DNA of 64,000 nt from a phage (GCA_028030915.1 GCA_028030915.1_4867.1), one strand, 5' to 3'. Positions 43,408 through 60,354 are shown, counted from the stretch's first letter. The notes: generated by a model not told the origin, from the letters alone. Numbers and translations: made by a program.

Positions 43408-44863
43408 GATACTCTTTACCGATATAGATTAAGAAGTAACGGATGTAGTATTTTTCAGGACGACACACCGCGATGTAATAACGGCCTTCGGGTTCTTTAA
43501 TACGGTTGATTTCCGTACGCGATGGAATATCGATACCACGCGTCAAAATAACCGAGACAGGTCGTTTACCCATCGGAAAGTCAATCTTTAACGTTATTGA
43601 CTTATCGACGCTACGGTAGTATTCCTTAACAGGCTTACCTTTGTCATCGAACAACAAGTCAGTAATATCATTTAAGACATAACCCTTTTCCTGATGCAGA
43701 ACATCTCTCAACGTTGTAGCGAGTTCGTCACGAATATCCAGCGCACGGTACGACAATAAGGGCGGGCGAAGCATTCTGGAGATGGCCAGGTCTTCAAAGA
43801 ACCAGACATTGGAATCTTCTCCACTGAAATGCATCTTGTCTGCCGGTAATCCATCACCTGCCACGTCAACGAACTTCTTACGTTTAACGAACTCATTGTT
43901 AACAACACCGATTGGATCATACTGCCGCATCTTCGGTGTATCTTTCCATGCCAGGGCGGCGTGGTTGTTTACAATCGTGTAGATGTTATCCCACGGTTGT
44001 TTAGTGAACATTACGGAAAAGTGTGCATCAGGAATCATTTTCCCAATAAACACCAAGTCGTCCTTGTTCTTTGCATGGTTGCCACCAAACATGTAATAGA
44101 AAGTTTCATCTTTCACTTTTACAGTAGGATGGTCCTCGTTCACCAACGGATAGCAATATTTAACCGTACAAATCGGCGGATATGCCGCAAGGTTCATCCC
44201 AGCGGCGATGGGCTCGGGTTCCGCGGATGCAGGCAACTCATCCTTCGACCAGTACGGCTGATATGGAACGCCGTCGTTGGTCGCTGTGATGGCTGAACCT
44301 TTTCTAGCCAATTCGTCCGCCCGGTCGTTACCGTAGTGGCCGGAGTGTCCTTTGATTTTGATAACCTTAACACCCCGTCCTTCTTTTTTCATCTGCTGTT
44401 TGATTTCCCAGATACGAACAATAAGTTCTTTGTTCGCCAGCGGAGTACCGTCAGCACGAACCCAACCACGTTTATGCCAGCCGTCTATCCACTCGTTAAA
44501 AGTGTTTACAACGTAACTGGCATCCACGTAGATGATATAGTTCTTCGCGCGGAAGGGCGCGTTCTCAAACAACGTGATGAAGGCGATTAACTCGCCCACA
44601 TCTGAGTAGAACTCTTTCGGAACGGGAATAACGGCGTCGACAAATTGAACGGTGTCCGGCAACTCCGGACAATTCACATCCTGCGGCACTTTTTTGTATC
44701 CAACAGTGGTAATCCGTTCTGAAACACCCGGATGGCTATAAGCCTGACTGTCTTCCAAATCTCCGTTGTTGAATAAATAACCATGAATACCAGCCCCCGA
44801 ACCTTTCGGGGACTCAGTATGACTACCATCGGTATAAATAACCGCTACGTCGACGTCTTTCAT
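43349..44863 (-). CDS. RNase H-domain protein with about 310-aa C-terminal extension of unknown function
   Basis: 504 aa; N-terminal about 195 aa carry RNase HI signatures (IYTDGS, GAGIHGY, YVDASYV..F.EWIDGWHKRGW, KGHSGHYGNDRADELARKG); the remaining C-terminal part matches nothing I recognise. Confidence 0.75.
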   Translation of the reverse strand: MKDVDVAVIYTDGSHTESPKGSGAGIHGYLFNNGDLEDSQAYSHPGVSERITTVGYKKVPQDVNCPELPDTVQFVDAVIPVPKEFYSDVGELIAFITLFENAPFRAKNYIIYVDASYVVNTFNEWIDGWHKRGWVRADGTPLANKELIVRIWEIKQQMKKEGRGVKVIKIKGHSGHYGNDRADELARKGSAITATNDGVPYQPYWSKDELPASAEPEPIAAGMNLAAYPPICTVKYCYPLVNEDHPTVKVKDETFYYMFGGNHAKNKDDLVFIGKMIPDAHFSVMFTKQPWDNIYTIVNNHAALAWKDTPKMRQYDPIGVVNNEFVKRKKFVDVAGDGLPADKMHFSGEDSNVWFFEDLAISRMLRPPLLSYRALDIRDELATTLRDVLHQEKGYVLNDITDLLFDDKGKPVKEYYRSVDKSITLKIDFPMGKRPVSVILTRGIDIPSRTEINRIKEPEGRYYIAVCRPEKYYIRYFLIYIGKEYHGLWCAYYANRRILREEEV

Positions 44864-45582
44864 TATTCTCCTCGCAACTGCGGTGGAATGTATTCACCTG
44901 TGCACATTTCGCGGTGGGCTTCTAACATGCGTTCGAAGCCGTACGTACGCGCGACCAGGGCCAAATGATAGATGCGTGCCGTAGAATACGCTTCCTTCGC
45001 AGCATCAAAGCTAGCGTTATGCTCGTACGCTTCTTTGCCACGGGTCCAATGGTGCGCTTCTGCGTGCCAGTTCGGTTCCAGGCCAAACGCATATGCAATA
45101 CGTTCTGCAGTCCGGTCAGAGTCCAATATAGAAAACTTGCGGTACTTGCCCGGCGGGATATCGCACTGCGCGAATGCGTTCATCAGAATTGGAGCATCGA
45201 AATCGGGACCGCGCATGGTGATAACCATTTTCACGTTGCCCAGATCATCCAACCATTTTTTGGCCGCCCACAGTGCTTCTGGCAGTGGAGTGGTCCCAGA
45301 AAACGCTTCAATACGTGCTTTCTCGCTCGGTGCGTATTCGGGGTCGCCTTTACCTTCCCAATAACCGACCGTTTGTGGATCGATGTAGAAGATTTCTTTT
45401 GCTTTTGCATCATTGGGGTCGATTTTGTGGTAACATGAACCGATCATTTTCATTGTCGGAACATCGAATGCCACGTTTGCCAACGTTAAGATGTAGGCAT
45501 CTGGACGTAAAGCCAGGGTCTCTAAGTCCGTCCCAACAACAACGGTGGGCGTTAAAACAGGCAGAATTTTAGGATATGTCAT
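44863..45582 (-). CDS. DEDDh-type 3'-5' exonuclease (DnaQ-like)
   Basis: 239 aa; Exo I-like VVGTDLETLAL and Exo III-like HNASFDAAKEAY motifs; 1-nt overlap with RNase H gene start. Confidence 0.65.
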   Translation of the reverse strand: MTYPKILPVLTPTVVVGTDLETLALRPDAYILTLANVAFDVPTMKMIGSCYHKIDPNDAKAKEIFYIDPQTVGYWEGKGDPEYAPSEKARIEAFSGTTPLPEALWAAKKWLDDLGNVKMVITMRGPDFDAPILMNAFAQCDIPPGKYRKFSILDSDRTAERIAYAFGLEPNWHAEAHHWTRGKEAYEHNASFDAAKEAYSTARIYHLALVARTYGFERMLEAHREMCTGEYIPPQLRGE

Positions 45583-45628: not shown

Positions 45629-45667
45629 AAAAAAAGGAAATCCCCTCTTACCCGAAGGTAAGAGGGA
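45629..45667 (-). terminator. intrinsic terminator (UUCG loop)
   Basis: aaaaaaaggaaat cccctcttacc cgaa ggtaagaggg; after lipoprotein gene. Confidence 0.6.
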
Positions 45668-45671
45668 GTTT

Positions 45672-46151
45672 TCATTGCACAAGGCAACTACTTTTGTGCC
45701 GTTCGTAGGCATGATTAAAAGACTCTCTGTCTTCGCGATAGCTGCGAATGAGAGACTTAATCTGTCGTGACAAATCACGACTAATGTCCTGAGGGCTACG
45801 AGAACCAGGGTCGAGATATATCCCGGAGGGTATATCATGAAGAGTGGGGCGAATAAACTCTTCACAAAGCGGTGCGGCCATCGGGGTGCGCCACCCCTTA
45901 GCTTCTGCGTAATTGTTCAACGACTTAGCGTACAGATAAACGTAATAAGCATAAGCGTTCACATCCGCAACAAACATTTTCCCTGCCAACTTTTTCGCCT
46001 CAGGACTGTTCCCACCAGCATAAACTGGTGGGTGTTCTAAAGGACGAAAAGGCCAATCTCCGGTTGAGGAGTAATCTGGGTCTACGTGACGGACGGCTCC
46101 AGGACATCCTGTCAACAATAGCACCAGTATCGCCACCAAAAATAACTTCAT
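45672..46151 (-). CDS. putative lipoprotein (159 aa)
   Basis: N-terminus MKLFLVAILVLLLTGC is a signal peptide with a lipobox (LTGC); immediately downstream of a membrane-protein gene. Confidence 0.55.
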   Translation of the reverse strand: MKLFLVAILVLLLTGCPGAVRHVDPDYSSTGDWPFRPLEHPPVYAGGNSPEAKKLAGKMFVADVNAYAYYVYLYAKSLNNYAEAKGWRTPMAAPLCEEFIRPTLHDIPSGIYLDPGSRSPQDISRDLSRQIKSLIRSYREDRESFNHAYERHKSSCLVQ

Positions 46152-46160
46152 GTATGCTCC

Positions 46161-46676
46161 TCATGGATTATTAAGCGTACTGATAATCTCCTGTCGGAAA
46201 TCATTTGCCTCCTGCGACCCTACCGGGCGAGAAGCGGCCTGGTATTTCTTGGCAGGTGGGCTAGACGGATTTAACGGTGCCGGCGGTGTTACCGGCTTGA
46301 GTTCTACAGGCGGAACCGCGGCCTCAGTGCCTGTTCCTGTTGGAGATTTGGTACCATCATATGGCGGTCGAGAACCCAGGCACGTGAAGAGACGATCGTA
46401 CAACTTATTGTTCTCCACTTCGCTATGATCGGACTTCTCTTTTAGCTCCTTATAGGATATCTCCAGATACTGAGTACGCGATTGAACGCTAACCAGTGTG
46501 TGGTATTGAACAATGTAGGCGTATGAGACAAATGCAGAGAACGCGATCAGTGCCACTATCACTAGTGTCACTATTTTCCCGGCTCGTGTTACTTTCTCCC
46601 CCTCGCCCGGTTTAAATGCTTCCCACAGCATTTGTAAGAATGGAAGCAGTTTGAAAACTGATGCTATCATGCTCAC
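46161..46676 (-). CDS. membrane protein with one TM helix and Pro-rich C-terminus (171 aa)
   Basis: Hydrophobic segment IVTLVIVALIAFSAFVSYAYIV, then charged helical segment and Pro/Thr-rich tail; paired with the downstream lipoprotein. Confidence 0.5.
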   Translation of the reverse strand: MSMIASVFKLLPFLQMLWEAFKPGEGEKVTRAGKIVTLVIVALIAFSAFVSYAYIVQYHTLVSVQSRTQYLEISYKELKEKSDHSEVENNKLYDRLFTCLGSRPPYDGTKSPTGTGTEAAVPPVELKPVTPPAPLNPSSPPAKKYQAASRPVGSQEANDFRQEIISTLNNP

Positions 46677-46694
46677 CTCGGAGAGTTTTTAATT

Positions 46695-48074
46695 ATGTAT
46701 GATTTACAAGGCTTTATTCAAATAGCGGCTCTGATTGATAATGGCCCTGGCAACACCGCTCCGGTAGGTGAGTTGTCTGAGCTGTCATATTCGTTCGCTA
46801 AAAGCAAGCAGTATTTTACTAAAGAAAATCTGCAGGTGGAACTGGTTGCTTTTACTTCTAAACGTGACGAGTTACCTATTAAGACCCCGGCCGTCTTTAG
46901 CGACCACGTTCTTACTGTTTCCCAATGGATCTACCAACAGTCTATCCTGGGCAACTTAAGAAACGACGAAGTTGAATTCCAGCGTTTGCTGTTGGGGCAA
47001 TTTAATAGTGTCATCAGCGGTGTTCAGTCTGGCGCGATGATTCAGACTAACAGTAACTGGTTCCCACGTTGGGTCAGTTGGAAACTTGAAACCACAGCAG
47101 ATAAAGTCGAAGACCCATCTGATGTGAATAACCAGATTATTCTCTGGTTTGCTGATGAAGATTTCAATCAGGACTATACCGGATTTGAAATTGAAGTCCA
47201 AATGCCGATATTACCGGTTGATACTTTCTTGGCTGTGAAATCTGTAGTCGAAAAGGCAATGGAAGGGTTCAACCTTCCGGATCACCATAATAAGATTAAC
47301 GAATTAGCTGACGGTTATCCGTACACTAGCCTGATTACTAACATCTATACTTGGCACGACCAGGAAGACTTTGATTCCACCTTACCGATACCGATGTCGG
47401 CTATCATCTACGGACGCGCGGGTCGTAACCCGAGCAGGATTAAACAAGCGTTGCGTGATTACATTTTGGCAAACTCCAGTTTTACTGTGGCGTTGGGTGT
47501 CAAGGTGTTCCCAGAAATCTTTACGACCACCAAGTTCACAATTGTTCCCGGTTGGTCAATTCGTGGGATTCCAAATGAGGAAGACGTTGCGGCATTATAC
47601 TCGCCGATTCTCCCATATGATTTCTGGGTCAAAGCAATCTCCCGATTTGGGGAGTGGACTGTTCAAACCATTACGGAAAAAAATAGTGGAGCAATCTCAA
47701 CTCCAACTACCGATGTAACGGATTTACCGTCCATCTATAAATCACTAAACGCTGTAGTTATCGCAGGCCCTGAAAACGATTCACGCAAAACGACCCTGCA
47801 CGATACGATTCCCGACTACGCATTAATCGGCACTAACAATGCAGATATTGCGAGAATGTCGAAGAAAACCACCGAGTGGCTGGACTTGTTCTTCCAGGCG
47901 TTAATCGCAGCGGAAGAGTATCACCCACATTCCACCCCGCTGGATATCGTGAAGCTCGTAGACGACGTCGATCCTAACGTTTACTTCTACGTCTTCGAAT
48001 TCGATAACGTGGAGTATCGTGTCTTGGCCCGCAAAGCTGTTTGGGATGTCCCTGCGGCAGAGCCAGAAGCCTAA
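46695..48074 (+). CDS. hypothetical protein (459 aa), possibly structural
   Basis: ORF track; SD ggagag upstream. Confidence 0.65.
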   Translation: MYDLQGFIQIAALIDNGPGNTAPVGELSELSYSFAKSKQYFTKENLQVELVAFTSKRDELPIKTPAVFSDHVLTVSQWIYQQSILGNLRNDEVEFQRLLLGQFNSVISGVQSGAMIQTNSNWFPRWVSWKLETTADKVEDPSDVNNQIILWFADEDFNQDYTGFEIEVQMPILPVDTFLAVKSVVEKAMEGFNLPDHHNKINELADGYPYTSLITNIYTWHDQEDFDSTLPIPMSAIIYGRAGRNPSRIKQALRDYILANSSFTVALGVKVFPEIFTTTKFTIVPGWSIRGIPNEEDVAALYSPILPYDFWVKAISRFGEWTVQTITEKNSGAISTPTTDVTDLPSIYKSLNAVVIAGPENDSRKTTLHDTIPDYALIGTNNADIARMSKKTTEWLDLFFQALIAAEEYHPHSTPLDIVKLVDDVDPNVYFYVFEFDNVEYRVLARKAVWDVPAAEPEA

Positions 48075-48084
48075 GGAGGGTTAA

Positions 48085-48708
48085 ATGGCACAACTGTTGC
48101 CTAACACGCCTCAGGTTAACCTTGAGGGGTTGTTCAAGGTTAAGGCACCTTATACGTTGCCAGATAAAGTGATTTACCGTGTTGACGCGGTACAGAACTT
48201 TCCGAAACTCCAACGTAATAATATTGACGTTTATAACAAGTATTATAAACCTGTCGGCCTAACTCGTGACGACTATATCAGCGACGCTAATGTCGAAGCC
48301 TCGATTGTAACATTAAAGTCGAGGGACGGTCAAGTCTACGAGTTGCCTGATACGTACATTGAGACGTATCCTGGACTGAACGGGTTAAATTATAGACGCA
48401 ATGTGGTGGTTATTGACCTGGCATTAATACCCGAATACGTCGATGTCACACTGCTAACGAACGACCTGAAAAGCATCTTAGAACGCGGTTTAGGAATCGA
48501 TGCACGTGTGGACATCACATCGATGGATTACGAAGGGACGGTGACGGAAGAAGAACACTTGCAAATGGAAGCGGTGCGTAAAGCCAAAATCCGTGAGCAG
48601 GTTCCTCTGACAGAACAAGTTGCAACACTCACTAAGCAGAATCAAGAACTGCAGGCGTTGAATGATGCGATGTTGAAAATCCTGAAAGATAACGGGTTAA
48701 CAAATTAA
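48085..48708 (+). CDS. hypothetical protein (207 aa)
   Basis: ORF track; strong SD aggaggg 6 nt before ATG; followed by bidirectional terminator. Confidence 0.65.
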   Translation: MAQLLPNTPQVNLEGLFKVKAPYTLPDKVIYRVDAVQNFPKLQRNNIDVYNKYYKPVGLTRDDYISDANVEASIVTLKSRDGQVYELPDTYIETYPGLNGLNYRRNVVVIDLALIPEYVDVTLLTNDLKSILERGLGIDARVDITSMDYEGTVTEEEHLQMEAVRKAKIREQVPLTEQVATLTKQNQELQALNDAMLKILKDNGLTN

Positions 48709-48709
48709 A

Positions 48710-48761
48710 GAAAAAAAGAACTACCTACTCCCTTGGGAGTAGGTAGGCTTTTATTTTTTAT
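48710..48761. terminator. bidirectional intrinsic terminator
   Basis: aagaaaaaaagaa ctacctactccc ttg ggagtaggtag gcttttatttttta; stem sequence closely related to the 39869-39895 hairpin. Confidence 0.65.
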
Positions 48762-48765
48762 CGCA

Positions 48766-49923
48766 TTACTTGCCGATAATTTCACGCATCATTGCTTTGA
48801 TTGTGGCAGCAGTACGTTTCTTTTTCGGCTGCTTGCGGATTTCCGCGTACAGTTTATCCAGGTTCAGAGTTTTCTGTACCTGTGCAACGATATGCATTTG
48901 CTCTTCGTCGATTTTCACTTCGACGGTCTGCTCCTGCATCTTGCCCAGTTCCTGAATAACGCTGGCAACCGATACCGGATATGCGGTTGATTTCGGACGC
49001 TCAATGCCGAGGGTGATGAAGATTTCATCATCGATGAACACGTTTTCGATATCAGCCAGGTTTTCCAGAATGATTTCATCGTGGTCTTCATCTTCCGACG
49101 CATTCGGGTATGGACGTTTGTAGGTGTAATCCCACACGTCATAACCGAGTTTATCTGCGAGTTGTACGAAACCTTCCCAGGTTACTTCGCCGGGGTTGAT
49201 AGTCTGGCCACGGAAACCGGGGTTGGCCGTAAAGACTTTCACCCAGTCGATGTTCGCGATGTTACGACACTCTTCCAGCGGCGCGTAACGATCTCCCACT
49301 TCGTCATTGTCAGTCTCTTCAACATGCTCTGCTTCACAACGCTCGAAAGTAACTGAGTGTGGTTTACCGTCGCCGAAGATAACGGAGGCAGCACGCCAGT
49401 CTTCGATAGTCCACTGGACATGAGTCAATTCAATGTAACAATGCCCAACCTTAGCACGGCCTTGTGGGGCACTTACTGGTTTAATCAACTCACCTGGTTC
49501 GAAGAAGAATCCGTCAGAATGTGCAATGGCATACCAGACACCATCAACGCCTTCAACGAGAATAGACCAGTTATAAGGCGCGTGGCAATTTTGGAAAGCT
49601 ACACCCAGCATACTTCCCCAACGGTCATCTGGCGAATATTTCAGTGGTGGCAGGTTATCAAACTGAAGAGTTTGAGAAGAAAGGCACAACTTATTACGCA
49701 GGTGCGGCAGCGGCAGATAAGCCTCCACATTGTTATCGACCAGCGCATTGTAAAGATCCGGGTTGATAACACCGGTGCCAGTGACGTGTTGTGCAATCAG
49801 AGCTTCTGAATATGCACGAATACCTTCGTAGCTAAGCACATACGCACGGTCACGTACTACACGAGCCATATCTTCGATTACGGAAATTGGAAATTGCATG
49901 TTAATAGTCCTTATAAAAGTCAA
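48766..49923 (-). CDS. hypothetical protein (385 aa)
   Basis: ORF track. Confidence 0.6.
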   Translation of the reverse strand: MTFIRTINMQFPISVIEDMARVVRDRAYVLSYEGIRAYSEALIAQHVTGTGVINPDLYNALVDNNVEAYLPLPHLRNKLCLSSQTLQFDNLPPLKYSPDDRWGSMLGVAFQNCHAPYNWSILVEGVDGVWYAIAHSDGFFFEPGELIKPVSAPQGRAKVGHCYIELTHVQWTIEDWRAASVIFGDGKPHSVTFERCEAEHVEETDNDEVGDRYAPLEECRNIANIDWVKVFTANPGFRGQTINPGEVTWEGFVQLADKLGYDVWDYTYKRPYPNASEDEDHDEIILENLADIENVFIDDEIFITLGIERPKSTAYPVSVASVIQELGKMQEQTVEVKIDEEQMHIVAQVQKTLNLDKLYAEIRKQPKKKRTAATIKAMMREIIGK

Positions 49924-49959
49924 TGGTATTTTCAGATGATTAGTTACTGCTGTAAAAAA

Positions 49960-50226
49960 CTAGTTACGGTCGGAATTAAAGACGTGCCAGGTACTACGCC
50001 AGCGGAAGAATCGGGTTATGAAACCACGTATGTGGTAGCCTGAGAACAACATCCAGATGGTAAGAAAGAGTTGCGCCCATGGGGACGTGAGTTCCATCAG
50101 ATGTGCGACAATCGCACCGATTACCAACATTACCGTGGAGAATAACAAACTATACATCATCGGAATGTTGTGGCTATAGCGTTTCTCCATCCAGTAGAGA
50201 AAATTTATTAAACGTTTCACGAACAC
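49960..50226 (-). CDS. small membrane protein with two predicted TM segments (88 aa)
   Basis: Hydrophobic stretches LLFSTVMLVIGAIVAHL and LFLTIWMLFSGY; a holin-like role is speculative. Confidence 0.45.
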   Translation of the reverse strand: MFVKRLINFLYWMEKRYSHNIPMMYSLLFSTVMLVIGAIVAHLMELTSPWAQLFLTIWMLFSGYHIRGFITRFFRWRSTWHVFNSDRN

Positions 50227-50239
50227 ACACCCAAGAATT

Positions 50240-50273
50240 AAATAAAAGGTGGTCAGACCCGAAGGTCTGACCG
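50240..50273 (-). terminator. intrinsic terminator (UUCG loop)
   Basis: aaataaaaggt ggtcagacc cgaa ggtctgacc. Confidence 0.6.
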
Positions 50274-50277
50274 TTAA

Positions 50278-50871
50278 TTACGCTTCGGCCTCAAAGAACG
50301 GCTGGTTCGGTACCACTGCATATTCGAGCACGAAAAGATGTTCTGGGGCATCTTCTGCTCGCCACAGTTTGTGACACGTTGCCAGTTTTTCCAGGATGGT
50401 CAACCAGCTGAGCTGGCAGAAAGCACGATCGCCGAAGAACAGTTTCTGCAGTGCAATCGACACATCCATATACGCCTGTTTGAAGTCGAGTTCTTTATCG
50501 TAACCCGCCGACTGTCGCCACGTCAGCACGAAGCCTGCTTCGGTTTCGTTAATTGCTGGACGTAAACCACAAATCCACATCAGCGCCAGATTAACGTTCC
50601 AGTCGAATTCGATACCTTCGTCTTCGTCATCACCAAACGCCGCGTTTAACGCATCGTAGAAACCGTGGTTCTCTGCGAACCATTCGCCGTACTCAACGTA
50701 TACCGGTGCTTCGACAGCTTCCCCATCGACTTCACCGATAGGACGCTCTACATAGTTCGGGTTGGTTTGAACGTGTTCCGCACCCGCGCGAATTAATTCG
50801 TAGACATCTTTGGCGGTGATTTGTGCGGCTGTTTTAAGACCTGGATACCAGGGGCGTGTTACGAGTGTCAA
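50278..50871 (-). CDS. hypothetical protein (197 aa)
   Basis: ORF track. Confidence 0.55.
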   Translation of the reverse strand: MTLVTRPWYPGLKTAAQITAKDVYELIRAGAEHVQTNPNYVERPIGEVDGEAVEAPVYVEYGEWFAENHGFYDALNAAFGDDEDEGIEFDWNVNLALMWICGLRPAINETEAGFVLTWRQSAGYDKELDFKQAYMDVSIALQKLFFGDRAFCQLSWLTILEKLATCHKLWRAEDAPEHLFVLEYAVVPNQPFFEAEA

Positions 50872-51590
50872 AGCAATGCTCCTTTCATGATAGTGTTATT
50901 TGCCAGTAGTGTACCGGCCGCAGGTGATATTTTGGTGTACAGCGTATCCCAGATTTTCTGAAGTTCAGCGACGCGTTGGTCGTGGTCTTCCTTCGCAAAA
51001 GCAAGCTGACGTGTTTCAGCTTTCGGTGGTGTCATTTTCGCACCGTAGAATGCTGCGTCTTTTCGGTAGCTGGCCATCCAGCGTTTCCCGACCGGTGATT
51101 TCTTTTTAATCATCGCAACAGCAGCACCCTCACCGAAGCGGTAGCCTAAAGCGATTTCGGCTGTGCTCGGCTTGCGTTTGAGTTGTTTTGTCAGATGATC
51201 CTCGATGTGTTTCATGTAAACGGCAGCAAGCTGTACAGCATACTTCGGTTTATTAAGGTCCGCATTCTTTGGGATGTTAAGTTGTTTCCCATACAGACGT
51301 ATCATGGAGCGTTTAGTGCCTGTCGTCATTTGGACAACACTACTAGCACTGCTCGATTTATTCTTACCCACGTTTTTATTAAAACGGGATTCACGATAAA
51401 TGGTGGTCGCGAGCATCCCGGCATGTACGCCTTGTTTTCGAGATGCGGTGACGATGAGAGGTTTAATCTCATTGAACTGGTCCTGGATAAGGACGAATTC
51501 TTTTTGGTGTTTGTTACTGGTGGTCTGGTAAGAAGCGTTGCTGTTGAACGTAGTCATTGCTACCAGAAGAAACAAAATGGTGCGAAACAT
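50868..51590 (-). CDS. secreted lytic transglycosylase-like protein (SLT domain with N-terminal signal peptide)
   Basis: 240 aa; N-terminal MFRTILFLLVAMTTFNSNA is signal-peptide-like; SLT-like motifs TTIYRESRFN...SSASSVVQM and ALGYRFGEGAA. Confidence 0.6.
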   Translation of the reverse strand: MFRTILFLLVAMTTFNSNASYQTTSNKHQKEFVLIQDQFNEIKPLIVTASRKQGVHAGMLATTIYRESRFNKNVGKNKSSSASSVVQMTTGTKRSMIRLYGKQLNIPKNADLNKPKYAVQLAAVYMKHIEDHLTKQLKRKPSTAEIALGYRFGEGAAVAMIKKKSPVGKRWMASYRKDAAFYGAKMTPPKAETRQLAFAKEDHDQRVAELQKIWDTLYTKISPAAGTLLANNTIMKGALL

Positions 51591-51677: not shown

Positions 51678-51697
51678 TGATGATAATATCTATTTGA
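51678..51697 (-). promoter_or_regulatory. conserved intergenic motif A, copy 4
   Basis: tgatgataatatctatttga; overlaps stop of macrodomain gene, about 95 nt upstream of start 51590. Confidence 0.3.
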
Positions 51698-52190
51698 AAC
51701 TATTTGGGATGATTTTCTCTGCTTCCCTCAGCAGGGTGTCCGGTAAATAGAATCGATAAGTCTGCTCCGTGTGCTGTAGTCGTTTCTGTAAGTGTATAAA
51801 GATTTCCAATCGCTCATGGTAACGTAACCAACCGTTAGCCATCCCTAGGGGCGGTATCGCAATCCCTCCTTCTAAGTCTTCCCCTAGTCGCGCCAGCGCA
51901 TCAATGCCGGACGTGACATAGTAAATCTGCGATTTATAGCGAAAATGGGTTTTAGTAGGAAGGAGTATTACCCCTTCCTCAGGATAACAATAGACCTCAC
52001 CGATAACGATTTGCTCTTTACGGCATTTCTGGCGATAGTCATTATAAAGCGATGGGAAGCGTTCTCGGCACGCCAAAGCAATACCCCTTCCCATCGCACC
52101 AACGCAATTAACTGTAACGACCTTGAAGCGCTCAGGCGCGTTAAACAGGTCGTGGGAGATAACGGCCTCGTCGATCAGTTCTAGTGACAT
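51690..52190 (-). CDS. macrodomain protein (DarG/TARG1-like ADP-ribose-binding or hydrolase fold)
   Basis: 166 aa; VVTVNCVGAMGRGIALACRERFP...IGEV...IAIPPLGMANG matches the NC.G.MG.GIAL...FP glycine-rich ADP-ribose-binding loop of DarG/TARG1-type macrodomains (recalled from memory). Confidence 0.65.
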   Translation of the reverse strand: MSLELIDEAVISHDLFNAPERFKVVTVNCVGAMGRGIALACRERFPSLYNDYRQKCRKEQIVIGEVYCYPEEGVILLPTKTHFRYKSQIYYVTSGIDALARLGEDLEGGIAIPPLGMANGWLRYHERLEIFIHLQKRLQHTEQTYRFYLPDTLLREAEKIIPNSFK

Positions 52191-54138: not shown

Positions 54139-54270
54139 ACTAAAATAACCATGATGCCAGAAATGCTCCGATTGCACAGATGATAATCGTAATGCCAAGG
54201 TCTGTCCAGGTGGCACCATCATACGCACCTGTTGCAATCATGGCTGCGTTGACACTATTCACGACTGTCA
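54139..54270 (-). CDS. tiny hydrophobic peptide (43 aa)
   Basis: Own translation MTVVNSVNAAMIATGAYDGATWTDLGITIIICAIGAFLASWLF; its ATG overlaps the end of the upstream small ORF; not in ORF track (<60 aa). Confidence 0.3.
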
Positions 54271-54458
54271 TAAGCCGGGTCCCTTAAACGCGGGGGCTTG
54301 CTCCACAGATTACCGAAGTAAACCCCTTCTAAGAACACCAAAACAACTAAGCCCCAAAAGGCAGGCGTAGCGCGAGACATGAAAATACCGAGTAGCACCA
54401 CAGTGTGCATTACCACAACTGCCCAAAACTTTAAACGACCAGGTTTACGTCTTGCCAT
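54255..54458 (-). CDS. small membrane protein (about 67 aa from internal ATG)
   Basis: ORF track 54255-54503; preferred start MARRKPGRLKFWAVVVMHTVVLLGIFM... overlaps the stop of the upstream 34-aa peptide; two hydrophobic segments. Confidence 0.4.
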   Translation of the reverse strand: MARRKPGRLKFWAVVVMHTVVLLGIFMSRATPAFWGLVVLVFLEGVYFGNLWSKPPRLRDPAYDSRE

Positions 54459-54549
54459 GGAATGCCCATCCTTTCGTGCGGATAATCCAACCCCAGGCAC
54501 CACGAATCAACCACAGTGCAATACCGGTTAATACGATACCTTCAATCAT
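54445..54549 (-). CDS. tiny hydrophobic peptide (34 aa)
   Basis: Own translation MIEGIVLTGIALWLIRGAWGWIIRTKGWAFHGKT; start overlaps stop of upstream ORF (ATGA); not in ORF track. Confidence 0.3.
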   Translation of the reverse strand: MIEGIVLTGIALWLIRGAWGWIIRTKGWAFHGKT

Positions 54550-54737
54550 GTCCGTTCTCCTATATCTCGCCACTCACAACGCGTGTCAAAAAGGCGTTCT
54601 TTAAGAGCAGAGGCTAAATAGACAACTGCAGCGATAACCACCACGGCTGCACAAAAGGAGAGGTACAGTACCATCACAACAAACTGAAGGAACTGAAAAC
54701 CCCACCAAGCCCATAAGCGCCAACCTTTATGATGCAT
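54546..54737 (-). CDS. small membrane protein (63 aa)
   Basis: ORF track; hydrophobic core FVVMVLYLSFCAAVVVIAAVVYLA; overlaps the 3' end of the Rad50-like gene. Confidence 0.4.
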   Translation of the reverse strand: MHHKGWRLWAWWGFQFLQFVVMVLYLSFCAAVVVIAAVVYLASALKERLFDTRCEWRDIGERT

Positions 54738-58644: not shown

Positions 58645-59028
58645 TTACTGGTCGAGCGCTACTGAACCACGCACCACCCCTTGCTGTTCAATAACCAGGA
58701 GGCGTTGTTTGGTTTTCGTATTGTAAGCGAGCGACGCGCGAAGCGTCGGGTCGCACGTTATTGTCTCTACTGGCACAATCTCTTGTGCCTTTGAGTTCAA
58801 CAGAAAGTAGTAACCTGCCGGACAAGTTTCCTCGCCCTTTGCGTGGACTAGGATGTACTCGTCGTGCCGGCTGACTTCTTCACATCTACCATCGTCGCCA
58901 GTACAGACTTCGAACGAAGGCGGGTTGTACTGATACGGTGTGCCTGGTAGTAAATCTTCTACGCTAGTTGTAGCTGAAGCAGAAGCGGTAAAGAACACCG
59001 CCACGATAATACCCATAAATCCACGCAT
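58645..59028 (-). CDS. small secreted Cys-containing protein (127 aa)
   Basis: N-terminal MRGFMGIIVAVFFTASASA looks like a cleavable signal peptide; 6 Cys in the mature part. Confidence 0.55.
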   Translation of the reverse strand: MRGFMGIIVAVFFTASASATTSVEDLLPGTPYQYNPPSFEVCTGDDGRCEEVSRHDEYILVHAKGEETCPAGYYFLLNSKAQEIVPVETITCDPTLRASLAYNTKTKQRLLVIEQQGVVRGSVALDQ

Positions 59029-59041
59029 GTTGTTTCCTTAC

Positions 59042-59452
59042 TTAAAAGTCGAGTTTATTGATGCCTACATTTTTCTTAATCGTAGGGTCATACATGATAA
59101 CCGTCAGGGCATTGTCGCCTGGGTCGCGTGTAAACTCAGCAACGGCTTCACCACTGCAGGCTTGGTTATCATTATAGTTCATGGATTCGGCTTGCCCGGT
59201 TGCCATGTTAATAACCCCGTATTCAGGGTCGCCACATGCGACACCGCCCATCGTTTTCACTAACAGGTAACGGTTGTTATCGGACATCGCAACGATCTGG
59301 CAGCTACCGCCTTGTACGTCAGAGTTCTGGCACCAGAACGGCCCGCCGTATTCGTGATCGTTAACAACTTTTGGTAACTCGATACTCCCAGCGCGAGCGA
59401 AGAAGCTAATGGCTAGAGTAGCAAGTAAAACTGGTAATAAAAAATGTTTCAT
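59042..59452 (-). CDS. small secreted Cys-containing protein (136 aa)
   Basis: Signal peptide MKHFLLPVLLATLAISFFARA; shares PFWC...C.(I/V)V motif with the next gene upstream. Confidence 0.6.
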   Translation of the reverse strand: MKHFLLPVLLATLAISFFARAGSIELPKVVNDHEYGGPFWCQNSDVQGGSCQIVAMSDNNRYLLVKTMGGVACGDPEYGVINMATGQAESMNYNDNQACSGEAVAEFTRDPGDNALTVIMYDPTIKKNVGINKLDF

Positions 59453-59474
59453 AATAGCACCTCAATTTTTTGAG

Positions 59475-59966
59475 TTATTCTGAATAGTCGATTGTTTTGA
59501 TGGTTTCCATACCGTAGTACATAGCGATGGAGGCCAGAGTTTTGGTATCCGGTCGCTGTACAAAACCGGCTCTGAAATCTTTGCTGCAAATTTTCTCCAC
59601 TGATAGTTCATCACGATTAGGGATAAGCCATAACGCGTCACCATTGTGACGGTCGACTGCACCCCACCAACCACCTGGGCAATCTTTATCGCCCGGACGG
59701 TGTACGATAGCGACACGACCGTTGAAGGATATGTCAACTACACGACACTGTTTCTTAAGCAGCTTACGCGCATTGCACCAGAACGGCTTATCATTAAGAT
59801 TGATGGTGCGGGTATATGCTGGAATGCTGCCGTTAATACTGCCCTGGAACCCGCTGAATTCGTCAGCGCGTGCCTTAGAAATCCGTAGCCCAACAACAAC
59901 TGCCATCAACAGCACAGTAAAAAGCACCACTTTGGCCAAGTGGCGATTAACGTTATTGCATTTCAT
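59475..59966 (-). CDS. small secreted Cys-containing protein (about 163 aa)
   Basis: ORF track 59475-60011; preferred start MKCNNVNRHLAKVVLFTVLLMAVVVGL (signal peptide); DKPFWCNARKLLKKQCRVV motif paralogous to 59042-59452. Confidence 0.55.
   Translation of the reverse strand: MKCNNVNRHLAKVVLFTVLLMAVVVGLRISKARADEFSGFQGSINGSIPAYTRTINLNDKPFWCNARKLLKKQCRVVDISFNGRVAIVHRPGDKDCPGGWWGAVDRHNGDALWLIPNRDELSVEKICSKDFRAGFVQRPDTKTLASIAMYYGMETIKTIDYSE
59483..59493 (-). promoter_or_regulatory. motif B, copy 3
   Basis: Plus-strand aatagtcgatt about 30 nt upstream of ATG 59452. Confidence 0.3.
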
Positions 59967-60354
59967 TTTTGATATCTCCACGATTGAGGGTGATGCGACC
60001 GACGAGCACATCGTTGTGATAAAAGCTCACAGCAACCAAATTCGGTAATTCCAGTGGCGATACACTGACCGAGGTGACTTTTGGTTGATTGCACGATATG
60101 TCGATTAACCGCTGATACATTTTCAATTTCTTATCAGCGATAACCAGCCCTGTGCAGTTCTTACCGTCCGTCAGTCTGTAGATTTGTAACTGTTCGACCT
60201 CACGCATCAGTTCCGGTTTTTCATTCGGTGCAATGCCATAATCCGAATCAGCTGATGTGTATTCAGTCACGTCTGGCTTATCGAAAGCATAAGTTGCTGC
60301 AATACCACATGCGGCCAGAACTACTACTGCTTGTAAGAACTTCTTGATAGTCAT
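59953..60354 (-). CDS. putative lipoprotein (133 aa)
   Basis: N-terminus MTIKKFLQAVVVLAACG with lipobox-like LAAC. Confidence 0.55.
   Translation of the reverse strand: MTIKKFLQAVVVLAACGIAATYAFDKPDVTEYTSADSDYGIAPNEKPELMREVEQLQIYRLTDGKNCTGLVIADKKLKMYQRLIDISCNQPKVTSVSVSPLELPNLVAVSFYHNDVLVGRITLNRGDIKNEMQ

Follow-up and report, generated by a model that had tools for sequence, protein, structure and literature searches.

In a 64,000-nucleotide stretch of DNA from a phage (GCA_028030915.1; hereafter the window), the region at 45672-51590 codes for an SLT-domain lytic transglycosylase with a predicted signal peptide and, elsewhere in the region, for a membrane protein and a lipoprotein from neighbouring genes, homologues of gp198, gp204 and gp205 of phage SPN3US. 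The source of the window is an SPN3US-like chimallivirus (nucleus-forming jumbo phage): over the 6.2-kb region, identity is 99.5% with Salmonella phage MET_P1_082_240 and 97.2% with SPN3US (Seoulvirus). Genes of the region are named here by mapping onto the SPN3US records, and the suffix h denotes the homologue in the window. The leading reading, which we put forward tentatively, is that the region holds two separate late-lysis modules, an exported SLT endolysin (gp198h) and a separated spanin pair (gp204h/gp205h), and that the holin is encoded elsewhere.

Under this reading, the transglycosylase would be exported via a cleavable signal peptide, not released through a holin hole; it would stay in the periplasm until de-energisation of the membrane and would then break down the murein. 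gp204 would be a type-II inner-membrane protein with a helical, Pro-rich periplasmic arm. gp205 would be a lipoprotein of the outer membrane, its helical hairpin stapled by a disulfide. Spanning the periplasm between them, the two would act as a 'separated' two-component spanin that disrupts or fuses the outer membrane when the cell wall has gone. The holin role would fall, outside the window, to gp86, whose gene comes after the homologues of phiKZ gp139/gp140, a small two-transmembrane gene of the region would code for an accessory membrane protein, and tail genes would separate the two modules.

Among nucleus-forming jumbo phages, phiKZ is the only one in which lysis has been worked out, and this as late as 2026. 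Should the above reading be true, SPN3US-type phages (which serve as the genetic model of enterobacterial chimalliviruses) do the same job with a differently wired kit, composed of an exported transglycosylase, a holin and its regulator as sole occupants of the ancestral cassette slot, and, for the spanin, another inner/outer-membrane pair; more than 70 genomes in which these genes are now 'hypothetical protein' would thereby gain three concrete gene calls. Most of the elements are already known from the literature or from annotations. As far as the searchable papers show, three points are new: that the CR5/SPN3US pair is orthologous to phiKZ gp156.1/gp156, that the cassette slot of the SPN3US clade is without canonical spanins, and that the membrane protein's partner is patchily distributed.

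The gp204/gp205 pair

Signal peptides, transmembrane domains (TMDs) and lipoboxes were called by rule-based readings (hydropathy and a lipobox script) and not by a formal predictor. The open reading frame (ORF) of gp204h has 171 codons and encodes a strong predicted TMD at residues 35-53 (Kyte-Doolittle hydropathy, KD, 2.5) with Lys and Arg on its N-terminal side and a Pro-rich tail. The ATG at 46670, the third codon of the ORF, is suitably placed for a Shine-Dalgarno sequence (GAGGT, 46679-46675), so the product likely has 169 residues. The GenBank record of SPN3US starts gp204 at Met16 and thereby omits residues 1-15; since these are conserved in distant relatives with 43-47% identity, that start is too short. 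The predicted layout is an N-terminal 'LLPFL' motif, the TMD, a periplasmic helix, a Pro-rich linker (about 50 residues) and a conserved C-terminal helix, and in some orthologues the N-terminal helix (residues 3-21) comes near the threshold for a second hydrophobic segment. More distant orthologues have long heptad-like helices.

The gene of gp205h has its own Shine-Dalgarno sequence (GGAG), lies 9 nt after the gp204h stop on the same strand and is followed by a terminator-like hairpin. Its product carries a lipobox, LTGC, at residues 13-16 (LLLTG/C-P, 11-17; slashes mark predicted cuts), the Cys of which is invariant in 18 family members. Asp after the lipidated Cys is an inner-membrane retention signal in enterobacteria; with Pro at position +2, gp205h has no Asp retention signal. 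The predicted mature protein has 144 residues and is about half helical. In an AlphaFold2 model built from an 18-sequence alignment, a disordered linker (17-48) is followed by a helix (50-84), a loop with the invariant Cys96 and with Pro108, and a confident helix (120-156, predicted local distance difference test score about 90) that ends at the invariant Cys156; a Cys96-Cys156 disulfide might staple this helical hairpin. A Foldseek search with the model returned no PDB match and, from BFVD, family members only.

In the whole SPN3US genome (240 kb, scanned for lipoboxes in all frames and from all starts), the credible lipoprotein genes numbered three and the membrane-protein genes about ten, and gp205 was the only lipoprotein with a type-II membrane protein, gp204, encoded immediately upstream. 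Because this is the sole pair in the genome with such spanin grammar, the features are not ascribed to chance. The two genes are adjacent in all 73-75 phage records (Salmonella, Erwinia and Cronobacter), every one of which annotates them as 'hypothetical', and a spanin annotation of the pair is absent from all GenBank records found.

The arrangement agrees with the criteria of Kongari et al. (2018), namely a type-II i-component with one TMD, a lipoprotein as o-component, and the o gene directly downstream. The same authors listed CR5_183 (168815-169330) and CR5_184 (169340-169786) of Cronobacter phage CR5 as a 'separated' two-component spanin and 'best candidate', with the caveat 'Too long?' or 'very long' (PMC6139136, supplementary tables), and recorded one coiled-coil segment (66-99) in the gp204 orthologue. 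By tblastn, gp204h and gp205h match CR5 at the same coordinates, and the CR5 genes are therefore their direct orthologues. Common to both pairs are the N-terminal motif, the TMD, NRPPYDG with the Pro-rich linker, the lipobox, both conserved Cys and an intergenic distance of about 10 nt, and each pair lies five genes from an SLT endolysin gene; on the other hand, the CR5 call is bioinformatic only, and SPN3US-type genomes lie outside that census. An earlier, sequence-only reading of the window had described a single-TM protein with a Pro-rich tail next to a lipoprotein, which the TMD and the lipobox bear out, and had likened the two to spanins while noting that the lipoprotein is larger than typical o-spanins. 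It thus independently repeated an existing bioinformatic call, down to the reservation about size. The spanin likeness stands as regards formal organisation and the CR5 orthologues, and is weakened by the phiKZ orthologues and the frequent absence of the partner described below.

Evidence from virions does not conflict with a role in lysis. The virion proteins of SPN3US run, by gene number, from 193 to 202, 203 and 214 in Table S4 of Thomas et al. (2016); gp202 and gp203 are virion proteins, the latter the product of an essential tail gene, and gp198-gp201, gp204 and gp205 were not detected by mass spectrometry. The sequence-only reading had named presence in virions as the result that would speak against it, and all four of its proteins (gp198, gp200, gp204 and gp205) are missing from the table. 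The absence of gp198 excludes a virion-borne role of this enzyme in entry.

Known spanins, phiKZ orthologues and distribution

In phiKZ, complementation defined a lysis cassette of gp141 (i-spanin), gp141.1 (o-spanin), gp142, gp143 and gp144, in which gp142 is a class III holin with a large cytoplasmic domain, gp143 is a regulator, and gp141/gp141.1 were verified as spanins by complementation of lambda Rz/Rz1 (Manohar et al. 2026). We surveyed the position downstream of the phiKZ gp139/gp140 homologues in 48 IMG/VR loci. In most lineages the gp140 homologue is followed by a protein with an N-terminal TMD, an overlapping lipoprotein, a protein with a C-proximal TMD and a soluble protein, that is, a phiKZ-type cassette; in all nine SPN3US-clade loci it is followed directly by a gp86-type protein and gp87, with no spanin pair in the slot. 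The gp141 family was confined to Pseudomonas phages in tblastn searches. The SPN3US clade lacks canonical spanins, and gp204/gp205 is its sole candidate.

With gp141/gp141.1, lambda Rz/Rz1 and T4 PseT.3/PseT.2, the pair has in common a predicted type-II inner-membrane protein with a putatively helical periplasmic domain, a gene for an outer-membrane lipoprotein after it, and periplasmic Cys; as in T4, the genes are separated and lie away from the holin. It differs from these verified spanins in that the Pro-rich segment is in the i-component instead of the o-component, in the 30-residue conserved cytoplasmic N-terminus of gp204h, and in the lack of any sequence or profile similarity.

Several observations weigh against a spanin role. 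Firstly, judging from profile matches and gene order, gp204/gp205 are orthologous to phiKZ gp156.1/gp156. Divergently upstream of gp157, phiKZ encodes gp156.1 (96 aa, with a TMD and the N-terminal sequence ALLFVWPFLKRAIF), gp156 (lipobox LISGC, C-terminal ...EEWRAKCDE) and then RNase H, a layout that matches gp204/gp205 next to gp203. phiKZ gp156 matches the PHROG of gp205 (E=1.8e-6) and, on mature domains, gp205 itself (hhalign P=9.5e-6), a link already made by PSI-BLAST in Table S1 of Thomas et al. (2016), and the membrane proteins gp204 and gp156.1 join via intermediate sequences (P=1.9e-5 and 1.2e-4). In both phages the pair lies between the tail gene (gp157 = gp203) and RNase H in the same order and on the same strand, and consists of a 'WPFLK'-type TMD protein and a lipoprotein with the same two Cys and a detectably homologous C-terminal domain; phiKZ gp156.1 differs in its short periplasmic tail of about 40 residues without a Pro-rich linker, and phiKZ differs in that it also has its verified spanins. 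A mention of phiKZ gp156 was not found in the searchable literature. In transposon insertion sequencing (TnSeq) of phiKZ, orf156 and orf156.1 had zero insertions, and orf141 and orf141.1 one each (trimmed table). With few or no insertions in both, the two pairs do not look redundant; for orf156/orf156.1 a polar effect is plausible, because no terminator lies ahead of the downstream RNase H gene.

Secondly, gp204/gp205 showed no similarity to the verified phiKZ spanins gp141/gp141.1 (phmmer; hhalign P 0.03-0.36), and we found no fold or sequence link of the pair to any known spanin; its PHROGs are of 'unknown function'. One hidden Markov model match of the pair to gp141.1 (E=0.054) was discarded, as it vanished after removal of the signal peptide. 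Thirdly, gp205h is unusually long and helical for an o-spanin, and the strongly conserved cytoplasmic N-terminal motif of gp204 has no role in the spanin model.

Lastly, the distribution of the two components is uneven. Upstream of the gp203/gp157 homologues (80 loci), a membrane protein with a 'WPFLK/LLPFL/IPYLY' motif was present in about 77, followed by a lipoprotein in about 56, by a homologue with a Cys-less signal peptide in 5, and directly by RNase H in about 14-16; the lineage lacking the lipobox (IMG/VR 3300045988_113438 and 3300029126_000001) belongs to the SPN3US clade and is likewise without spanins in the slot (the contigs of L014/L017 are those of L033/L032). An obligate two-component spanin would be expected to retain both components and the anchor, and it is mainly for this reason that we hold the spanin reading no more than tentatively.

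A complementary distribution of canonical spanins and the pair was also considered; it holds in the SPN3US clade but fails for contig 3300011217_000001, where the spanin pair of the slot and the lipoprotein partner are both missing, so this argument was not relied upon. In the five metagenomic relatives with the Cys-less signal (for example MMKMLLFIMVVFVGLVSNSYG/DE; L014/L017, equal to L089 and L099, with L090, L091 and L105), the gp205 homologue keeps both conserved Cys, and would be a soluble periplasmic protein and not a lipoprotein. In one metagenomic lineage, L019-L022 and L029 (2849-3316, minus strand), the lipoprotein has Asp after the lipidated Cys (FASSC-D), and the two genes overlap by 11 nt. 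A search of 5.8 billion sequences with gp205h, gp200h and a family profile returned jumbo-phage relatives only, none of them in a small-phage lysis cassette.

A rival to the spanin reading, somewhat doubtful in our view and still to be taken seriously, is that the gp204/gp205 family, including phiKZ gp156.1/gp156, is a chimallivirus-wide envelope module and not a spanin, with the membrane protein at its core acting through the cytoplasmic N-terminal motif. The periplasmic partner, be it a lipoprotein or soluble, would then be a modulator, for example in a T/RI-like holin-antiholin system, as a lysis-inhibition sensor, in superinfection exclusion or as an assembly anchor. In favour of such a module are the coexistence of the phiKZ pair with verified, apparently essential spanins, the near constancy of the membrane protein against a partner that is missing or non-lipidated in the loci counted above, the fact that 'WPFLK/LLPFL' is the best-conserved part of the protein, and the missing link to known spanins. 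Class III holins such as T4 T have about 30 cytoplasmic residues, one TMD and a periplasmic domain with Cys. The topology of gp204 resembles these, and T4 T and its antiholin RI offer, by topology alone, a parallel with the pair in the short cytoplasmic N-terminus, single TMD, Cys-containing periplasmic domain and periplasmic partner; a difference is that gp204 usually has a lipoprotein as its partner, the gene of which follows directly. A lysis-inhibition system with an unknown sensor is suspected in phiKZ (Manohar et al. 2026). On the other hand, an envelope module of this kind would leave the SPN3US clade without any spanin candidate, the two-gene operon, its grammar and the lipobox predicted to sort to the outer membrane are exactly spanin-like, phiKZ already has a proven holin in gp142, and the apparent essentiality in TnSeq may be a polar effect.

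We consider it rather unlikely that the 'WPFLK/LLPFL' protein and its usually lipidated partner are a near-universal, unrecognised module of the Chimalliviridae that is distinct from canonical spanins and serves an essential step other than fusion. Such a module might act across the envelope to sense or regulate when lysis occurs (lysis inhibition), or as a membrane platform coupled to tail or virion assembly. In that case, SPN3US-type phages would either manage outer-membrane disruption with no classical spanins or have co-opted the module for that purpose. Should the rival to the spanin reading be right, a near-universal chimallivirus membrane module of unknown function would be hidden under a plausible spanin label. 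The comparison thus poses the question of what gp156.1/gp156 do in phiKZ, given its working spanins.

The transglycosylase and the holin candidates

gp198h matches the Pfam SLT domain (E=2.2e-6, 27.7 bits versus a cutoff of 21.3) and, with 32% identity across 117 residues (E=2e-13), the catalytic domain of gp144, the endolysin of phiKZ. Its catalytic Glu (E67) in YRESRF stands opposite SIESAF of gp144 (IES motif); among solved structures, its best PDB matches were gp144 chains only. The alignment with gp144 begins at residue 44, and the N-terminal peptidoglycan-binding domain of gp144 is not present in gp198h, where a predicted signal peptide stands instead. The N-terminus (MFRTILFLLVAMTTFNSNA/SYQ) is organised into n, h and c regions, with a single Arg, a hydrophobic core of 12 residues and S-N-A ahead of the predicted cleavage site; the signal comprises the first 22 residues, and its short core of signal-peptide type was all that hydropathy revealed. 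The signal is kept in PhiEaH2 (MFRLILTLLVVAVSFNTHA/S), in ChrisDB and in L018, although L018 is only 40% identical. The signal-bearing SLT-domain protein of the sequence-only reading is therefore well founded.

The family comprises 189 phage records, nearly all from jumbo phages and mostly annotated as endolysin or transglycosylase, and SPN3US gp198 has homologues in PhiEaH2, CR5 and phiKZ (Thomas et al. 2016, Table S1); a mention of SPN3US gp198 was not found in the searchable literature. Compared with gp144 (PDB 3BKH), gp198h has the same SLT catalytic domain and catalytic Glu-Ser motif, whereas gp144 has the peptidoglycan-binding domain, lacks a signal peptide, is encoded in the lysis cassette and needs the holin gp142. 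In addition, gp144 is also found in virions and SPN3US gp198 is not, and gp198h is encoded apart from any holin. In a recent entry (PDB 9xps, 2025-26), chain S of a larger assembly is 'Endolysin gp144', which is consistent with gp144 as a virion component of phiKZ. A lytic transglycosylase of PCH45 is essential by Tn-seq; gp198h was not compared with this enzyme here. PCH45 also has a gp54 labelled 'Rz-like spanin', the record of this phage being without locus tags. The gene of gp199h overlaps the SLT stop by 4 nt and adjoins the SLT gene throughout the clade, and a profile comparison of gp199 with phiKZ gp143 showed no similarity. Taken together, gp198h is probably the conserved endolysin of the SPN3US-like phage.

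The competing candidate is SPN3US gp156, a soluble protein with GH108 and PG_binding_3 domains encoded outside the region that corresponds to the window, and its existence weighs against the exported-endolysin reading, as does the need of a Sec-exported endolysin for some restraint. It seems to us improbable that gp198h is instead a periplasmic murein-remodelling enzyme, for example for host cell enlargement, with the GH108 protein as the true endolysin. Host cells do enlarge in infection, constitutive export of a muralytic enzyme sits awkwardly with lysis at a set time, and SPN3US gp156 has the classic architecture of a cytoplasmic endolysin, matches a PHROG 'endolysin' family (1.7e-39) and is annotated as endolysin in RefSeq. 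Secreted and signal-anchor-release (SAR) endolysins are, however, well known. Moreover, SPN3US gp156 has no homologue in PhiEaH2, CR5 or phiKZ, whereas gp198 has one in all three and matches gp144 (Thomas et al. 2016, Table S1). Near the GH108 gene in SPN3US (NC_027402, 135425-136042) lies, 1.6 kb apart, a lone lipoprotein gene, gp159 (137623-138114); its product is a canonical lipoprotein (MKRLFIVFAIINLLAGC) with no neighbouring TMD partner and, like gp156, without homologues in those three phages.

Regarding the holin, a gp86-type protein occupies the conserved holin slot in every member of the SPN3US clade, the equivalent slot in phiKZ holding the spanins, the holin gp142 and the regulator gp143. 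In SPN3US, gp86 and gp87 (NC_027402, 84978-86286; L006:34978-36286) are encoded outside the region covered by the window, directly after the gp139/gp140 homologues; in gp86, two hydrophobic segments come after a predicted cytoplasmic domain of some 100 aa, and gp87 is soluble with 212 aa. By position and topology, the holin of SPN3US is probably gp86, and gp86/gp87 are likely its holin/regulator pair. Comparison with phiKZ gp142/gp143 gave a weak hhalign match of gp86 to gp142 (P=1.6e-3) and nothing further, and the PHROGs are separate.

The small two-TM protein of the region, gp200h, has a strong hydrophobic segment at 23-41 (KD 2.2), a weaker one at about 50-70 and a basic C-terminal tail, and thus shows the holin features of small size, at least one TMD and a charged C-terminus. 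Its match to Pfam DUF4231 (a SLATT-type two-TM domain) reached 21.4 bits, below the cutoff of 24.7, and the PHROG search found no family. Relatives are 37 near-identical records only, unannotated in many; the slot is empty in PhiEaH2 (a 112-bp gap) and filled in other clade members by unrelated multi-TM proteins of 159-197 aa. Neither membership of a known holin family nor conservation with the endolysin across relatives was found. The two hydrophobic segments claimed by the sequence-only reading were thus confirmed, but the part in lysis that it gave this protein finds no support, and gp200h, very unlikely to be a holin, is best described as an accessory membrane protein.

We regard as equally remote the reading that the SLT protein, gp199, gp200h and the pair are one lysis set in which gp200h, as a holin or pinholin, activates the exported enzyme: its segments and tail, a gene that runs in the same direction as the SLT gene and lies 650 bp downstream of it, the sub-threshold DUF4231 match and the frequent presence of some membrane protein in the slot of related genomes speak for it, and are outweighed by the terminator-like hairpin between gp199h and gp200h, the narrow and variable occurrence just described, and the gp142-like gp86 in the holin slot throughout the clade, beside which the weakness of the gp86-gp142 match is also to be counted. 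Two adjacent tiny ORFs elsewhere in the window, at 54255-54503 (at most 82 aa) and 54546-54737 (63 aa), both on the minus strand and corresponding to SPN3US gp188/gp187, each encode a very hydrophobic TMD and are worth considering in searches for holin-like genes.

Gene order and neighbouring genes

All four ORFs named in the sequence-only reading were recovered by ORF calling at the coordinates it had given (Table 1). Three strong terminator-like hairpins, each exactly in an intergenic gap, divide the region into four units, SLT-gp199, gp200-gp201, gp203-gp202 on the opposite strand, and gp204-gp205; hence the region is not one contiguous cassette, and the proposal of a single lysis gene set, already interrupted by the tail genes gp202/gp203, does not hold.

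Table 1. Genes and terminator-like hairpins of the region, in window coordinates
Feature	Coordinates	Strand	Basis or remark
SLT lytic transglycosylase with signal peptide, SPN3US gp198 homologue, 240 aa	50868-51590	-	SPN3US record: 'putative endolysin'
gp199 homologue, soluble acidic protein, 197 aa	50278-50871	-	ORF; PHROG of unknown function
Terminator-like hairpin, 9-bp stem and T-run, in the gp199h/gp200h gap	50251-50272	-	Hairpin scan
gp200 homologue, 88 aa, two hydrophobic segments	49960-50226	-	Hydropathy
gp201 homologue, 385 aa, function unknown, co-directional with gp200h	48766-49923	-	ORF, PHROG search
Bidirectional terminator-like hairpin, 11-bp stem, between convergent gp201h and gp202h	48721-48746	.	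Hairpin scan
gp202 homologue, DUF7194, tail-side virion protein, no lysis gene	48085-48708	+	Pfam E=2.5e-71; SPN3US virions
gp203 homologue, essential tail protein, phiKZ gp157 orthologue, synteny anchor	46695-48074	+	
gp204 homologue, predicted single-pass inner-membrane protein, candidate i-spanin	46161-46676	-	Likely start ATG 46670
gp205 homologue, predicted outer-membrane lipoprotein, candidate o-spanin, 159 aa	45672-46151	-	
Terminator-like hairpin, 11-bp stem and T-run, directly after gp205h	45642-45667	-	Hairpin scan

The start codons of the divergent genes gp203h and gp204h are only about 18-24 bp apart (46670-46695), so their promoters must sit within each other's coding sequence. 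Downstream of gp204h/gp205h come an exonuclease gene and then the RNase H gene. The former (44863-45582, minus strand) directly follows the terminator of the lipoprotein gene, encodes an Rv2179c-like 3'-5' exoribonuclease, has one base in common with the RNase H gene and, in comparison with phiKZ, represents an SPN3US-clade-specific insertion. Directly upstream of the SLT gene, a macro-domain protein is encoded at 51690-52190 (minus strand; Pfam 21.7 bits versus a cutoff of 22).

The tblastn matches of every gene of the region are split into 4-7 pieces in LR535901-LR535917 (SPFM1, 5-10, 12, 14, 15 and 20), whereas sister SPFM records match in one piece; the former assemblies seem to be full of frameshift errors. 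Further along the window, at 58645-60354 (minus strand), four consecutive small genes of 127, 136, about 163 and 133 aa all have signal-peptide-like starts, the last with a lipobox-like VVLAAC; this cluster of Cys-containing, apparently secreted proteins corresponds to the gp180-183 region of SPN3US.

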